Position numbers and translations under genes: made by a program. This document shows positions 2,857 to 63,807 of a stretch of 64,000 nucleotides of DNA, one piece after another. The notes below the pieces were generated by a model. That model did no database searches and was not told where the DNA came from. It worked only from the letters and a program-made list of their open reading frames with translations. This DNA comes from Escherichia coli (GTDB taxonomy: Bacteria > Pseudomonadota > Gammaproteobacteria > Enterobacterales > Enterobacteriaceae). The DNA is taken from assembly GCF_030384885.1 (NCBI RefSeq), contig NZ_CP128613.1. One strand, 5' to 3'. The first letter of the stretch is position 1. Every line of letters begins with the position of its first letter.

Positions 2857-3753
2857 TTATTCCTTGTCTAAAACCTGACGAATAAAGCCGCCGTGTTGAT
2901 CCAGGCGTTTTTTAGCTTCTGCGGCATCGAGATTTTTCAGCACCATCACAATGGCCGTTTTGCAGTTGCGCTCGCAGGCAATTAACGCCGCTTCCGCTTG
3001 TTCGGCGTTACATCCGGTGGCGTTTTTAACGATATTGACCTGGCGCACATGCAATTTTTCGTTGGTGGCGACCACATCGACCATCAGGTTGCCGAACACT
3101 TTGCCGGATTTAATCATCAGCCCGGTAGAGAGCATATTGAGCACCAGTTTCTGCGCTGTGCCTGCTTTCATTCGCGAAGAACCGGTAACCACTTCGGCAC
3201 CAACCACCGGAGTAATAGCAAACTCAGCGGTGGTTGAAACGGCGCTCCCCGGATTACAGGAAATGCCCACTGTGCGGCAACCGAGTTGGCGTGCGTATTC
3301 CAGCCCGGCAATCACATACGGAGTGCGACCACTGGCAGCAATACCAACCACCACATCCTGTGCGGTTAAGCCGATATTTTTTAGATCGTTAACGCCACCT
3401 TCCCGGCTATCTTCTGCGCCTTCCACCGCGTGCTGAATGGCATATTCACCGCCAGCAATCAAACCAACCACCAGGCCCGGTTTGACGCCGTAGGTCGGCG
3501 GACATTCGCTGGCATCAAGAATACCCAGACGACCGGAAGTCCCCGCACCGATGTAAATCAGTCGACCGCCGCCGCTTACCTGGGCGTGGATAACATCGAT
3601 CGCTGCGGCGATATCCGGCAGTACACGCTCAACGGCGAGTGGTACGGTTTTATCTTCATCGTTGATAATCCGGCACATTTCCAGCGTTGATACGCGGTCA
3701 ATTTCAGCCGAAGCGGCGTTCGAGCCTTCGGTAATCATCTTTTCAAGTTGCAT
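2857..3753 (-). CDS. murQ: N-acetylmuramic acid 6-phosphate etherase
   Basis: 298-aa SIS-domain ORF recognised as MurQ; upstream of murP. Confidence 0.9.
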
Positions 3754-3916
3754 CGGTGGTGACCTTACTATTTACGATCAAATAATTGCAGATGGATGGA
3801 ATCATATATCCCGAATTGACAGACTTAAAGGAATCATTGAGTCTACACTCGCAGAGTGTGAAGAGCGTCATAAGAACTTAAGCGGAATTTTTGCTGCCAG
3901 CCCAGGAGAGTGGAAG

Positions 3917-4774
3917 ATGTTGTACCTGACGAAAATACGCAATGCAGAAAGTGAATTTACCGAGAACGAGCAAAAAATAGCTGACTTTCTGCAGGCTAAA
4001 GTGAGTGAGCTGAAATCCGTCTCTTCGCGCAAGATGGCGAAACAGCTCGGCATCAGCCAGTCGAGTATTGTGAAGTTTGCCCAAAAGCTCGGCGCGCAAG
4101 GATTTACTGAATTGCGTATGGCGTTAATTGGCGAATACAGTGCCAGCCGGGAGAAAACGAATGCCACGGCGCTGCACTTGCACAGTTCGATTACCAGTGA
4201 CGATTCGCTGGAAGTGATTGCCCGTAAACTGAATCGCGAAAAAGAGCTGGCACTGGAGCAAACCTGCGCCTTACTCGATTACGCGCGGCTGCAAAAAATC
4301 ATTGAGGTCATCAGTAAAGCGCCGTTTATCCAGATAACAGGCCTGGGCGGGTCGGCGCTGGTGGGGCGCGATCTTTCATTCAAACTGATGAAAATTGGTT
4401 ATCGCGTGGCCTGTGAAGCCGACACGCACGTACAAGCTACCGTTTCCCAGGCGTTGAAAAAAGGTGATGTACAAATCGCTATCTCTTACAGCGGCAGTAA
4501 AAAAGAGATTTTGCTATGCGCCGAGGCAGCGCGAAAGCAGGGGGCAACGGTGATTGCCATTACTTCACTGACTGACTCTCCGCTGCGGCGGTTGGCACAT
4601 TTCACCCTCGATACCGTTTCTGGTGAAACCGAATGGCGTAGCTCGTCGATGTCCACCCGCACGGCACAAAATTCGGTTACCGATTTACTGTTTGTTGGGC
4701 TGGTACAACTTAATGATGTCGAGTCATTGAAAATGATTGAGCGCAGCAGTGAGCTAACGCAACGCCTGAAATGA
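3917..4774 (+). CDS. murR: RpiR/SIS-family transcriptional repressor of murQP
   Basis: Track ORF 3662..4774 trimmed to ATG at 3917 ([14 protein letters not shown]...), giving 285 aa; divergent from murQ. Confidence 0.8.
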
Positions 4775-51677: not shown

Positions 51678-52030
51678 AGTTACCTTCTGTAGATACGAAT
51701 TGTTGTATCGCAGAAGATTCCATGTCGACAGCGGTACACTCAATTGATTGGGCCATCATGTACGACAATGGTTCCTGTAAAGAGTGTAAAGACTAGTCAG
51801 GACATAACCACGAGGAGCATGAATGCGGTGCTTTTACTTTATCACTGGCTGACTGCTTTCAGCTACTGATTATTTATCGTGCAAAGTAAATATTTTTTTC
51901 GCACATTACAGTCTTGCATTTAACGTGCTGTTTTCATTAATACTTAGCAAAAATTGCCAGAGGTTAAGGATTGTCTTACTATTAAAGTGACTGAAGTTAC
52001 AGGTTTTTTAGCGCGGCAGGAGGTTGAGCT

Positions 52031-52273
52031 ATGATTTATTTATGGATGTTTCTCGCCCTGTGTATTGTCTGCGTAAGCGGATACATCGGTCAGGTACTGA
52101 ACGTGGTCTCGGCGGTCTCTTCTTTCTTCGGCATGGTGATCCTCGCTGCACTCATTTACTACTTCACCATGTGGTTAACTGGCGGTAATGAACTAGTGAC
52201 GGGGATATTTATGTTTCTTGCCCCGGCTTGTGGCTTGATGATTCGCTTTATGGTGGGGTATGGCAGGCGGTAG
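52031..52273 (+). CDS. yfdY: Small inner-membrane protein (DUF2545)
   Basis: 80-aa ORF with two predicted TM helices. Confidence 0.6.
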   Translation: MIYLWMFLALCIVCVSGYIGQVLNVVSAVSSFFGMVILAALIYYFTMWLTGGNELVTGIFMFLAPACGLMIRFMVGYGRR

Positions 52274-52349
52274 TAGTTCAGGATGGATCATTTGGGCAGG
52301 TGCTCACATCATCAACAGATATGATTGTTCACCTGCCATGTGACAGACG

Positions 52350-52625
52350 CTATCGCACAGGATGAATAAGATAATTCGCCTTTGTCGGAAAAGGGGGCGT
52401 GATGTCTTCTGTGAGATTTAATGGTGGCGCATCTTCTCTCATCTTAAACAAAATCGCCTGTGATGGTTGAAGTTTTGTAGAATGAGTTGTCGTCATCACT
52501 GACGTTTTTTCTGTCTCTTTATAGCTCGTCTCACTTCCACCACCAGAAATGGAAAATGCAAAAACATTGCATGCCATAATAGAGACCAATAAAAATAAGC
52601 TAAAAAGCATTAAGTTTACTTTCAT
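52350..52625 (-). CDS. ypdI: Small exported protein / putative lipoprotein
   Basis: 91-aa ORF with lipoprotein-type signal (LLVSIMAC). Confidence 0.55.
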   Translation of the reverse strand: MKVNLMLFSLFLLVSIMACNVFAFSISGGGSETSYKETEKTSVMTTTHSTKLQPSQAILFKMREDAPPLNLTEDITPPFPTKANYLIHPVR

Positions 52626-52767
52626 AGAAAGTTATCCTGAGAATGGCTCACTGAGAACCTACGATGTTATGGCTGTATTTACATTTAATTAATCAGTATT
52701 TACATCGATATAATAAATGACATCTCTTTGTGGTATATAAGAATAGTTCTCTGCGACAGGAAGCATA

Positions 52768-52785
52768 TTCCTACAATTGTAAGAC
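52768..52785. promoter_or_regulatory. EvgA-box-like 18-bp inverted repeat upstream of yfdX
   Basis: TTCCTACA-AT-TGTAAGAC; resembles the TTCYTACA..TGTARGAA EvgA box as I recall it. Confidence 0.5.
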
Positions 52786-52805
52786 TAAAATACTTCTTGC
52801 GATAA

Positions 52806-52823
52806 TAACTACAACTGTAAGAT
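52806..52823. promoter_or_regulatory. Second, weaker EvgA-box-like repeat upstream of yfdX
   Basis: TAACTACA-AC-TGTAAGAT. Confidence 0.4.
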
Positions 52824-52920
52824 AACCCTTTCAAAATGACCGTTGCTCTCTGATTTCTCATTTCATGCTCACCCAATATGATGGCGGCGTTTTCTAAAAC
52901 TGTTAAAGAATGAGGTAAGT

Positions 52921-53553
52921 ATGAAACGTTTAATTATGGCTACGATGGTCACAGCGATTTTGGCATCATCAACTGTATGGGCTGCTGATAATGCACCGGT
53001 AGCAGCACAACAGCAAACTCAGCAAGTTCAGCAAACCCAGAAAACTGTAGCAGCAGAGCGTATCTCTGAACAGGGTTTATATGCGATGCGTGACGTGCAG
53101 GTAGCGCGCCTGGCTCTGTTTCATGGCGATCCGGAAAAGGCAAAAGAACTGACCAATGAAGCTTCAGCTTTGCTGTCAGATGACAGTACTGAATGGGCAA
53201 AGTTCGCTAAGCCAGGTAAAAAGACCAATATCAATGATGACCAATATATTGTCATTAATGCATCTGTCGGAATTTCTGAGAGTTATGTAGCGACACCAGA
53301 AAAAGAAGCAGCGATAAAAATTGCGAATGAAAAAATGGCGAAAGGAGATAAAAAGGGCGCAATGGAAGAGCTTCGCCTGGCCGGTGTTGGCGTAATGGAA
53401 AACCAATATCTGATGCCGCTTAAACAGACTCGTAATGCACTTGCTGATGCGCAGAAACTGCTTGATAAAAAGCAATACTACGAGGCAAACCTGGCGCTTA
53501 AAGGTGCGGAAGATGGAATCATCGTCGATAGCGAAGCACTGTTTGTGAACTAA
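52921..53553 (+). CDS. yfdX: Periplasmic protein YfdX (EvgA-regulon member)
   Basis: 210-aa ORF with signal peptide [21 protein letters not shown]. Confidence 0.8.
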
Positions 53554-53606
53554 TGCTGACAGGCAGCATATTGAAGTAAAAGATTTTACTCCCTCCAGGC
53601 GACAAT

Positions 53607-53644
53607 TTTTTATGACCACAATACGACCGATTGTGGTCATAAAA
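53607..53644. repeat. Perfect 15-bp inverted repeat with 7-nt loop
   Basis: ttttatgaccacaat-acgaccg-attgtggtcataaaa, 54 nt downstream of the yfdX stop. Confidence 0.7.
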
Positions 53645-53797
53645 TTATTTGGCGCTCGCGGTTCTATAAACACGCATTTTCTATTCCTCAAAGTAAACAT
53701 TAATAATCCCGTGTCATCACGAAATCATTGTTTATGTTATGTTTTATGGTACGATTTAAAAATCGTAATCATTTCCCTAACTGTAAATCACAATCGC

Positions 53798-53815
53798 TTC
53801 TTACAGTTGTAAGAA
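53798..53815. promoter_or_regulatory. Perfect EvgA-box-like palindrome upstream of frc
   Basis: TTCTTACA-GT-TGTAAGAA, about 250 nt upstream of the frc start. Confidence 0.55.
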
Positions 53816-54066
53816 TAACATCACAAATGTCGCGGCTCTCTCTGATTACCGCAAACCAATATTTATCATATTCTTCTTTTCGTCCTCACTACTTACCATG
53901 CAAAAAGGAATTGGAAGTGGCGATGAAATGATTTCCAGCACTTGATACAGGAATTTAAAAATATCGAGTGCAGCTACGACGATATTTTGCGGATTATTTA
54001 TAGAGGGCGTTATGCCTTAAATAAACGCTAAATTAACATATATTTAATTAACTAATAGGTATTGCT

Positions 54067-55317
54067 ATGTCAACTCCACTTCAAGGAATTAAAGTTCTCG
54101 ATTTCACCGGTGTGCAATCTGGCCCATCTTGTACTCAGATGCTGGCGTGGTTTGGCGCTGACGTCATTAAAATTGAACGTCCCGGCGTTGGTGACGTAAC
54201 GCGTCGCCAGCTGCGAGATATTCCTGATATCGATGCACTTTACTTCACCATGCTTAACAGCAACAAACGTTCTATTGAATTAAATACCAAAACAACGGAA
54301 GGCAAAGAGGTAATGGAAAAGCTGATCCGCGAAGCTGATATCTTGGTCGAGAACTTTCATCCAGGGGCTATTGATCACATGGGCTTCACCTGGGAGCATA
54401 TTCAGGAAATCAACCCACGTCTGATTTTTGGTTCGATCAAAGGGTTTGATGAGTGTTCGCCTTATGTGAATGTAAAAGCCTATGAAAACGTTGCTCAGGC
54501 AGCGGGTGGCGCGGCATCCACTACGGGTTTTTGGGACGGCCCGCCGCTGGTAAGCGCTGCAGCGTTGGGTGACAGCAACACCGGAATGCATTTGCTGATC
54601 GGTTTACTTGCTGCTTTGCTGCATCGCGAAAAAACGGGGCGTGGGCAACGAGTTACCATGTCAATGCAGGATGCCGTGTTGAACCTTTGCCGCGTGAAAT
54701 TACGTGACCAGCAGCGCCTCGATAAGCTGGGTTATCTGGAAGAATACCCGCAGTATCCGAATGGCACATTTGGCGACGCAGTACCACGCGGTGGTAATGC
54801 GGGTGGTGGCGGTCAGCCTGGCTGGATCCTGAAATGTAAAGGCTGGGAAACCGATCCTAACGCCTATATTTATTTCACTATTCAGGAGCAAAACTGGGAA
54901 AACACCTGTAAAGCTATCGGCAAACCAGAATGGATTACCGATCCGGCATACAGTACAGCTCATGCCCGACAGCCACATATTTTCGATATTTTTGCTGAAA
55001 TCGAAAAATACACTGTCACTATTGATAAACATGAAGCGGTGGCCTATTTGACTCAGTTTGATATTCCTTGTGCACCGGTTTTAAGTATGAAAGAAATTTC
55101 ACTTGATCCCTCTTTGCGCCAAAGTGGCAGTGTTGTCGAAGTGGAGCAACCGTTGCGTGGAAAATATCTGACAGTTGGTTGTCCAATGAAATTCTCTGCC
55201 TTTACGCCGGATATTAAAGCTGCGCCGCTATTAGGTGAACATACCGCTGCTGTATTGCAGGAGCTGGGTTATAGCGACGATGAAATTGCTGCAATGAAGC
55301 AAAACCACGCCATCTGA
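54067..55317 (+). CDS. frc: Formyl-CoA:oxalate CoA-transferase
   Basis: 416-aa family III CoA-transferase ORF recognised as Frc/YfdW. Confidence 0.9.
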
Positions 55318-55370: not shown

Positions 55371-57065
55371 ATGTCAGATCAACTTCAAATGACAGATGGT
55401 ATGCATATCATCGTTGAAGCATTAAAACAGAATAATATTGACACTATTTATGGTGTTGTAGGTATTCCTGTGACGGATATGGCGCGCCATGCCCAGGCGG
55501 AAGGCATTCGTTATATTGGTTTTCGTCATGAGCAATCTGCAGGCTATGCGGCTGCGGCAAGCGGTTTTCTTACCCAAAAGCCAGGGATCTGCCTGACCGT
55601 TTCTGCGCCAGGATTCCTCAATGGTTTGACCGCATTGGCCAACGCAACAGTAAATGGTTTTCCGATGATCATGATCAGCGGCTCCAGCGATCGCGCGATC
55701 GTTGATCTCCAGCAAGGTGATTATGAAGAGCTGGACCAAATGAATGCGGCAAAACCCTATGCCAAAGCGGCATTCCGCGTTAACCAGCCGCAGGATCTTG
55801 GCATTGCGTTGGCACGCGCTATCCGGGTCTCCGTTTCGGGTCGCCCTGGCGGTGTTTATCTTGATTTGCCAGCAAATGTCCTGGCTGCGACGATGGAAAA
55901 GGACGAGGCATTAGCCACTATTGTTAAAGTTGAAAACCCATCGCCAGCGTTATTGCCATGCCCGAAGTCAGTCACTAGTGCAATTTCGCTGTTAGCAAAA
56001 GCAGAACGGCCATTAATTATCCTTGGTAAAGGCGCGGCGTATTCACAAGCTGATGAGCAGCTTCGTGAGTTTATTGAAAGTACCCAGATTCCATTCCTGC
56101 CAATGTCTATGGCGAAAGGGATCCTGGAAGATACGCATCCACTTTCTGCGGCGGCTGCGCGTTCGTTTGCGCTGGCAAATGCTGATGTTGTCATGCTTGT
56201 TGGGGCGCGACTGAATTGGTTACTGGCGCACGGTAAAAAAGGATGGGCGGCAGATACACAGTTTATTCAACTGGATATAGAACCGCAGGAAATTGACAGC
56301 AATCGACCCATTACTGTGCCAGTCGTTGGCGATATTGCATCCAGTATGCAAGGTATGCTGGCAGAACTGAAACAAAACACATTTACGACTCCACTGGTGT
56401 GGCGCGATATTTTAAATATCCACAAGCAGCAAAATGCGCAAAAAATGCATGAAAAGTTAAGTACAGATACCCAACCATTAAATTACTTTAATGCATTGAG
56501 TGCGGTGCGCGATGTATTGCGCGAGAACCAGGATATTTATTTAGTTAATGAAGGGGCAAATACCCTGGATAATGCACGAAATATTATTGATATGTATAAA
56601 CCACGTCGTCGTCTGGATTGTGGCACCTGGGGTGTCATGGGCATCGGTATGGGCTATGCCATCGGTGCTAGCGTGACCTCTGGTTCTCCGGTTGTCGCCA
56701 TTGAAGGTGATAGTGCTTTTGGTTTCAGTGGGATGGAGATTGAAACGATTTGTCGATATAACCTGCCGGTGACAATCGTTATTTTTAATAATGGCGGCAT
56801 CTACAGAGGAGACGGTGTTGATCTCAGTGGCGCTGGTGCACCATCACCAACAGATCTATTGCACCATGCAAGGTATGACAAATTAATGGATGCATTTCGT
56901 GGCGTTGGATATAACGTCACCACGACAGATGAACTTCGTCATGCTTTAACCACCGGTATTCAGTCGCGCAAACCGACCATTATTAATGTGGTCATCGACC
57001 CAGCAGCAGGAACTGAAAGTGGCCATATTACCAAACTTAACCCAAAACAAGTCGCTGGTAATTAA
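55371..57065 (+). CDS. oxc: Oxalyl-CoA decarboxylase (ThDP-dependent)
   Basis: 564-aa ORF with ThDP-binding motif ([31 protein letters not shown]). Confidence 0.9.
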
Positions 57066-63789: not shown

Positions 63790-63807
63790 ATCCTACAGGC
63801 GTAAGAA
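63790..63807. promoter_or_regulatory. EvgA-box-like inverted repeat in the evgA-emrK divergent promoter region
   Basis: ATCCTACA-GG-CGTAAGAA. Confidence 0.45.

Follow-up and report, generated by a model that had tools for sequence, protein, structure and literature searches.

The yfdX-frc locus and its palindrome

The DNA considered here is a 64-kb stretch of the Escherichia coli chromosome (the window, by which the whole stretch analyzed is meant), in which yfdX is followed by the oxalate genes frc and oxc and in which a long palindrome occupies the spacer between yfdX and frc. The features on which the analysis draws are listed below in window coordinates.

52350–52625, minus strand: ypdI, neighboring gene
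52768–52785, plus strand: EvgA-box-type inverted repeat TTCCTACAATTGTAAGAC, 5′ of yfdX (pattern search; PMC3720670)
52921–53553, plus strand: yfdX coding sequence, 210 aa (ORF list; annotated in E. coli by RefSeq as "YfdX family protein"), with the hairpin in its 3′ UTR
53600–53606, plus strand: CGACAAT motif, directly 5′ of the stem (alignment)
53608–53622, plus strand: 5′ arm of the hairpin, TTTTATGACCACAAT (inverted-repeat search), invariant in eight E. coli strains
53623–53629, plus strand: loop ACGACCG, variable in E. coli and beyond
53630–53644, plus strand: 3′ arm of the hairpin, ATTGTGGTCATAAAA (inverted-repeat search)
53645–53652, plus strand: U-rich tail TTATTTGG (terminator scan), in E. 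coli only
53653–53797, plus strand: stretch biased toward C over G, a candidate Rho loading region (C/G 1.53 over 150 nt)
53798–53815, plus strand: EvgA-box-type inverted repeat TTCTTACAGTTGTAAGAA, at the start of the separate frc-oxc-yfdVE promoter and kept in Yersinia (pattern search; PMC3720670)
54067–55317, plus strand: frc (formyl-CoA transferase), the next gene 3′ of the hairpin (ORF list; RefSeq annotation)
55371–57065, plus strand: oxc, neighboring gene 3′ of frc

The only gene transcribed across the hairpin site is yfdX, on the plus strand, and RefSeq has no annotated feature at that site. According to the part of PMC3720670 that cites Masuda and Church, EvgA binds inverted repeats 5′ of yfdX and, separately, 5′ of yfdWUVE; because yfdX and yfdWUVE have separate EvgA sites, the yfdX transcript is expected to end between 53553 and ~53800. 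A pattern search found three EvgA-box-type repeats (TTCYTACA-NN-TGTARGAA) in the window, where 0.03 were expected by chance, with one mismatch at 52768–52785, none at 53798–53815 and two at 63790–63807, the last of these lying near the window end. The first repeat is a candidate promoter for the transcript that would end at the hairpin, and the second is a candidate boundary of the yfdX transcription unit; frc would be reached only by read-through or from its own EvgA-dependent promoter.

The sequence-only reading had described a perfect 15-bp inverted repeat with a 7-nt loop at 53607–53644, downstream of yfdX. The repeat is real: the inverted-repeat search gives two arms of 15 nt each that are 100% complementary (15/15) and separated by 7 nt, beginning 55 nt past the yfdX stop and ~150 nt ahead of the frc EvgA-box promoter. 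Its start had been put one base too far to the left, at T53607, which faces T53645 and is unpaired; the true start is 53608. G-C pairs number just 4 of 15, and the stem begins at its base with six A-U pairs. Nine perfect hairpins in the window have stems of at least 10 bp, and this one has the longest; no stem of 12 bp or more arose in first-order Markov simulations of the window. Folding of the 3′ UTR, a check that had been proposed together with that description, gave −25.9 kcal/mol for a 71-nt RNA (z = −5.2), a stability equaled by 0 of 200 shuffles, and the hairpin is the only strong structure between 53553 and ~53800.

Each E. coli genome has a single copy of the hairpin; two places are listed for it only because the palindrome matches itself on both strands. 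A covariance model of the hairpin found no copies in the window or at other loci beyond the sites used to build it, and an Rfam scan of 52000–55000 with E values up to 10 returned only two matches, both at chance level and below their gathering thresholds (17.8 bits, E = 5.9, threshold 100; 17.5 bits, E = 9.5, threshold 50).

An outer helix, GGCG/CGCU, that the fold predicts around the stem was rejected, given that its G is replaced by C, T or A with no matching change in the partner. A small ORF at 53612–53812, beginning from an ATG in the left arm, was likewise rejected, as it meets a stop after four codons in Yersinia. The CGACAAT motif (53600–53606), 7 nt 5′ of the stem core, partly repeats the CCACAAT at the top of the left arm, and its pairing with ATTGTGG in the right arm would make a weak alternative helix; the alignment has the motif kept between E. 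coli and the distant lineage L024 (described below) and replaced in Yersinia.

Variation of the hairpin in E. coli and other lineages

The stretch 53400–54100 is 100% identical to its best match, E. coli strain 2013C-4282. Among 5,426 genomes searched, identity of at least 99% occurs in just 23 complete-genome records, 95–99% in 570 and 90–95% in 4,818, most genomes standing at 93–95%, and by this comparison the window belongs to a minority E. coli lineage. Such divergence among E. coli makes the yfdX-frc spacer useful for comparison, for which eight strains across the identity range were taken. Below the top pair, none of the 28 arm positions vary, against 66 of 476 positions in the remaining spacer (Fisher P = 0.017); in the loop and top pair, 3 of 9 columns are variable, and the loop variants found in E. 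coli are ACGACAG, ACTACAG and ACGATAG. The top (15th) pair is U·G in K-12 and most E. coli (A53630 to G), which gives 14 perfect pairs and a wobble, so that the perfect 15-bp stem first described, with its U-A pair, is the state of the window's minority lineage and a few others.

A double substitution was found lower in the stem. Strain JNE120442, in an otherwise K-12-like background, carries A to G at the seventh position of the left arm (53615) and T to C at the paired position (53637). Of 5,426 complete genomes, 257 match the resulting G-C allele exactly, most E. coli having A-U. For the single-step intermediates at 53615–53637 (G·U and A·C) there is no full-length exact match in complete genomes; the best full-length match reaches 98.5%, so the single record listed at 99% or above must be a partial alignment. 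In strain N3, which has the G-C background, the neighboring C-G pair (pair 8) has become U·G.

Loci of yfdX and frc outside E. coli came from a YfdX-based scan of species-representative genomes (9 loci) and from look-ups of YfdX relatives; the frc ribosome-binding block of the non-E. coli loci, scanned against metagenomes, had no matches. In Yersinia vastinensis and Y. alsatica, whose YfdX is 84% identical to that of E. coli, only the palindrome, the frc ribosome-binding region and the EvgA-box/promoter block can be aligned in an otherwise essentially unalignable spacer; the palindrome there has a different loop (ATGATTG) between two 14-nt arms that match E. coli exactly. The promoter block comprises the frc EvgA box and an adjoining TAACATCACAAAT block, both kept in Yersinia. 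L022 and L023, a Yersinia-like lineage (YfdX 83%), have G·U as the seventh pair. In L024, where YfdX is 67% identical, the upstream genes are others and the spacer is G+C-rich, the seventh pair is G-C and the top pair C-G, one C-G pair is added and the outer A-U pairs have decayed; the loop is ACGGAAC and the stem has 10–11 bp, against 15 in E. coli and 14 in Yersinia. The core CCACAA/UUGUGG is unchanged even there, at a CCACAA-to-TTGTGG distance of 11 nt in L024 and 9 nt in E. coli and Yersinia. A longer imperfect helix in L024 carries the hairpin at its tip, and 22 nt downstream lies a separate small hairpin with UUUUAUUAUG, a call at chance level (2 found, 1.0 expected).

More distant arrangements have other hairpins. 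A canonical terminator lies ~50 nt past yfdX in L033, in which frc and oxc are called as short fragments at 3311–4579 (149, 127, and 68 aa) and the oxalate genes 3′ of yfdX appear to be pseudogenes. In L027–L032 and L034–L036 (Klebsiella variicola and several enterobacterial lineages) the three genes yfdX, frc and oxc lie close together, with yfdX-frc spacers of ~115–125 nt that leave no room for an internal EvgA promoter and that carry a strong lineage-specific hairpin 25–40 nt before the frc start. The six genera with a ~120-nt yfdX-frc spacer each have a different hairpin there, four of them with z ≤ −2.5. The position of the hairpin is kept where its sequence is not, and E. coli, Yersinia, L024 and L033, in which a long spacer gives frc a promoter of its own, seem to show a derived state.

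Two records bear on the history of the cluster and of the data. IS1-type and IS3-type transposase genes lie at ~450–2300 upstream of yfdX in Y. alsatica (L018–L021); their position before the cluster, together with the 84% identity of YfdX to that of E. coli, suggests that yfdX-frc-oxc reached Yersinia by horizontal transfer. The final 54 residues of E. coli YfdX are encoded, at 100% identity, on a 241-bp scaffold assigned to Limosilactobacillus vaginalis DSM 5837 (NZ_GG693475.1), which most likely reflects contamination of that assembly with E. coli DNA.

Across lineages, pair 7 occurs as A-U, G·U and G-C in three independent lineages and pair 15 occurs across alleles as U-A, U·G and C-G, the pairs being kept through compensatory or wobble changes as in a conserved RNA structure. 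Comparison of both arms across strains for compensatory changes, which the sequence-only reading had put forward as a check, is in this way positive for a base-paired structure (pairs 7, 8 and 15). In eight distinct sequences, 93% of cells are paired, 2 pairs have changed on both sides and 8 of the 15 pairs never vary; 54 of 500 shuffles reach that level, a weak statistic because few pairs vary. The alignments demonstrate selection on pairing through recurrent independent changes at one pair, including the double substitution within the species. Conservation of the core and of CGACAAT exceeds the needs of a purely structural role, though strongly selected stems evolve slowly.

The K-12, L022 and N3 alleles are asymmetric as DNA, and their changes are G·U or U·G wobbles in plus-strand RNA and A·C mismatches in minus-strand RNA. 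The plus-strand fold is more stable than the minus-strand fold for every E. coli and Yersinia allele; the reverse is true for L024, in which one outer mismatch (C·A) would be a wobble on the minus strand. Strand assignment by wobbles, three for plus and one for minus, is suggestive only, and the plus strand is inferred from gene context together with the wobble alleles. We conclude that the palindrome is an RNA stem-loop in the yfdX 3′ UTR.

Terminator-like features and the yfdX 3′ end

The E. coli stem is followed by TTATTTGG (in RNA, UUAUUUGG), in which 5 of 8 positions are T (U), and a lenient terminator scan called the E. coli form on the plus strand only, with 15 pairs and the tail TTATTTGGCG. 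This U-rich tail is the sole feature that could support intrinsic termination. There is no U-tract in Yersinia (DNA CTCTCTGT; RNA tail CUCUCUGU, CTCTCTG) or in L024 (DNA GTCCTGTC; RNA tail GUCCUGUC), and a U-tract is, on this comparison, not a conserved part of the hairpin element. The polarity is also reversed with respect to canonical terminators, the 5′ arm holding the U-run and the 3′ arm the A-run (TTTTAT…ATAAAA); the eight other perfect hairpins of the window mostly show the usual terminator order of A-run, stem and T-run. The hairpin thus has the stable stem-loop that canonical terminators place at the end of a transcription unit (about 5–14 bp with a loop of 3–8 nt; here 15 bp and 7 nt) and lacks their A-rich 5′ and U-rich 3′ polarity. 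The stem with neither a U-rich tract nor a 5′ A-tract that marks protective stem-loops is present in full in Yersinia and L024, E. coli being intermediate. These features bear out the earlier view that this is not a typical intrinsic terminator, the weak tail being absent from Yersinia and L024; the accompanying remark that a clean T-tract is lacking is a fair description and fails as an absolute, considering that the E. coli tail passed the lenient scan.

The sequence downstream of the hairpin has a C/G ratio of 1.43–1.53 in E. coli, 1.6–2.0 in Yersinia and 0.91 in L024, to be read against a median of 0.93 and a 95th percentile of 1.39 for 150-nt windows across the whole stretch. Within the yfdX-frc spacer there is also a minus-strand terminator-like call at 53702–53729 (12 pairs, tail AATGTTTACT), where no known minus-strand gene ends. 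In the spacer, TGTTTATGTTATGTTTTA (53729–53746) resembles a PhoP-box direct repeat, TGTTTA-N5-TGTTTA; its first half differs in K-12 (TATTATGTTATGTTTTA), so that the resemblance is not conserved.

Rho-dependent transcripts, after trimming by exonucleases, end at stable stem-loops that have no U-tract and are followed by C-rich sequence, and such protective stem-loops can turn into intrinsic terminators by gaining U's (Dar and Sorek, PMC6061677). The best reading of the yfdX palindrome, and in our judgment a probable one, is that the hairpin forms and protects the 3′ end of the yfdX mRNA and that in E. coli it is in addition a weak, leaky, non-canonical intrinsic terminator. We infer this 3′-end function from a structure, a selection on pairing and a lack of any conserved U-tract that the comparisons themselves establish. 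The palindrome would be transcribed within the yfdX mRNA, on the plus strand, and fold into a 14–15-bp stem-loop in the 3′ UTR, the function of which would depend on base pairing. The yfdX transcript would be monocistronic and EvgA-induced, with a 3′ end formed or protected by the hairpin. In E. coli, where the stem runs into UUAUUUGG, intrinsic termination would probably be weak and leaky; in all lineages the hairpin would probably stop 3′-to-5′ exonucleases (PNPase, RNase II) that trim longer transcripts, which would probably be ended further downstream by Rho acting on the C-rich, G-poor stretch, while polymerases that read through would go on toward frc.

Mapped 3′ ends were sought in the Adams 2021, TERMITe, SMRT-Cappable-seq and TRS tables, which have no entry for a yfdX 3′ end (near MG1655 2,4936xx); the probable cause is low expression of yfdX in standard media, as the gene is acid- and EvgA-induced and barely expressed under those conditions. 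The table of Adams et al. (2021) does hold a position at MG1655 2,494,302 on the minus strand, labeled "internal" to yfdX (~53020 in the window), which is probably an internal transcription start site. Against the best reading stand this absence from the 3′-end tables, the weak shuffle statistic for covariation, the reversed U-run/A-run polarity, the minus-strand preference of the L024 fold and of its outer mismatch, the six A-U pairs at the stem base, which are poor for intrinsic termination, the missing C-over-G bias downstream in L024, and the invariant core and CGACAAT of L024, which hint at sequence-specific recognition.

Alternative roles and known counterparts

That last hint leads to the alternative that survives best, a sequence-specific RNA element that an RNA-binding protein or RNase would recognize or cleave (as in ProQ-type 3′-end binding or processing by RNase III or RNase E) and that would tune yfdX relative to frc-oxc or uncouple the two. 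It is unlikely, though not negligible. The 8 of 15 pairs that never vary, a core GNCCACAA/UUGUGGNC that is identical across otherwise unalignable spacers and the retention of CGACAAT between E. coli and L024 all speak for it, as does the arrangement in L024, where the hairpin tips a longer imperfect helix and the small UUUUAUUAUG hairpin downstream may terminate instead, although that call does not exceed chance. The loop, where a protein usually makes its main contact, varies freely in sequence and length, and no publication was found that links yfdX to ProQ, Hfq or RNase III datasets; a search of the literature on yfdX together with terminator, 3′ UTR, ProQ, Hfq or RNase III found no relevant link. 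RNase III substrates comprise about two helical turns, ~20 bp or more of dsRNA. The stems of 15 bp in E. coli, 14 in Yersinia and 10–11 in L024 fall below that, and the outer helix that would lengthen the E. coli stem is not conserved. A more specific form of the same idea, in which the core GNCCACAA/UUGUGGNC and CGACAAU would be read by an RNA-binding protein or ribonuclease in the EvgA acid response, setting the ratio of YfdX to Frc and Oxc through read-through or through stability of the yfdX segment, is improbable.

A canonical, efficient intrinsic terminator and nothing more would fit the plus-strand call of the lenient scan, with its 15 pairs and tail TTATTTGGCG, and the location, which is the expected one for a yfdX terminator and is occupied by a canonical terminator in L033. 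Against it, the U-rich stretch is missing in Yersinia and L024 despite conservation of the stem; the U-run/A-run polarity is opposite to that of the eight other hairpins of the window; and the bottom six pairs, all A-U, set the G+C-rich part of the stem 6 nt apart from the tail. The Term-seq tables have no 3′ end here, though low expression could explain this, and on balance we regard a purely canonical terminator as unlikely. In the sequence-only reading, the doubt about a clean terminator is justified and the idea of an RNA structure is supported. The simplest reading is still a hairpin at the yfdX 3′ end, close to the plain yfdX terminator that the sequence-only reading had wanted to go beyond.

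A double-stranded DNA operator for a dimeric transcription factor of frc or yfdX, which had been raised at the outset, is very unlikely. A long perfect palindrome with a variable center, and arms that are identical in E. coli and Yersinia amid diverged flanks, would suit such a site, and the half-sites contain TGACCA/TGGTCA, which may resemble TetR-family sites such as those of RutR. The 11-nt core distance of L024, set beside the 9 nt of both E. coli and Yersinia, argues against a dimeric operator of fixed spacing. The two-fold symmetry of the DNA is broken in K-12, L022 and N3 while the RNA wobbles are retained, and arms of 14–15 bp exceed typical half-sites. Near-matches to the half-site number 8 in the window, against 1.3 expected; six of them are other near half-sites with no inverted partner, five inside long ORFs. 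The site is not in a promoter, being centered ~180 bp upstream of the frc EvgA box and ~70 nt past yfdX.

Least credible of all is a hairpin or cruciform acting at the DNA level, be it a recombination site, a repeated extragenic palindrome, or something that a mobile element targets or has left behind. In its favor, a single-stranded DNA hairpin would be preserved by compensatory changes just as well, and the Yersinia locus is flanked by IS1- and IS3-type transposase genes. Against it, there is one site per E. coli genome and the covariance model finds no further copies in the window or at other loci, there is no phage match, the "plasmid" matches are mislabeled, chromosome-like records, there is no Rfam or REP-like match, and the position relative to yfdX is fixed in all lineages.

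The reading of the hairpin as one that protects the yfdX 3′ end has close counterparts among known elements. It resembles the protective stem-loops of Dar and Sorek in being a stable stem-loop 3′ of a gene, with no proper U-tract and no 5′ A-tract and with C-over-G-biased sequence after it, and the difference between UUAUUUGG in E. coli and the tails of Yersinia and L024 matches their switch by gain of U's; it differs in being known here from sequence alone, in L024 lacking the C-over-G bias and in a stem conserved beyond structural need. With canonical intrinsic terminators it shares a loop within the 3–8-nt range, a place at the end of a transcription unit, a U-rich stretch in E. coli and a pass in the lenient scan, but only 4 of its 15 pairs are G-C, its base consists of six A-U pairs, its U-run and A-run are reversed, and its tail UUAUUUGG is not the 7–9-nt U-tract of such terminators and is not kept in other lineages. 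Intercistronic hairpins can also stabilize mRNA, as the REP elements in malE-malF do. The yfdX hairpin is like these in lying between an upstream gene needed in abundance and downstream enzyme genes, where it is placed to stabilize the upstream segment, and the genera with a ~120-nt yfdX-frc spacer have a hairpin in the same place; unlike them, it does not belong to the REP family, the many copies per genome of REP/BIME elements being replaced by a single site, and because a separate promoter serves the downstream genes in E. coli, the spacer there is no longer purely intercistronic.

The hairpin is a previously unannotated element of an ordinary kind and not a new kind of system. If the 3′-end reading is true, it would fix the 3′ boundary of the yfdX transcription unit and would explain how yfdX is expressed apart from frc-oxc-yfdVE, with which it is often described as one five-gene "yfdXWUVE" operon. 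It would also provide a small, clear case, within a species and across genera, of a 3′-end hairpin kept by compensatory change while its U-tract comes and goes, such gain and loss of the U-tract being the switch between Rho-dependent and intrinsic termination that has been proposed from Term-seq data.
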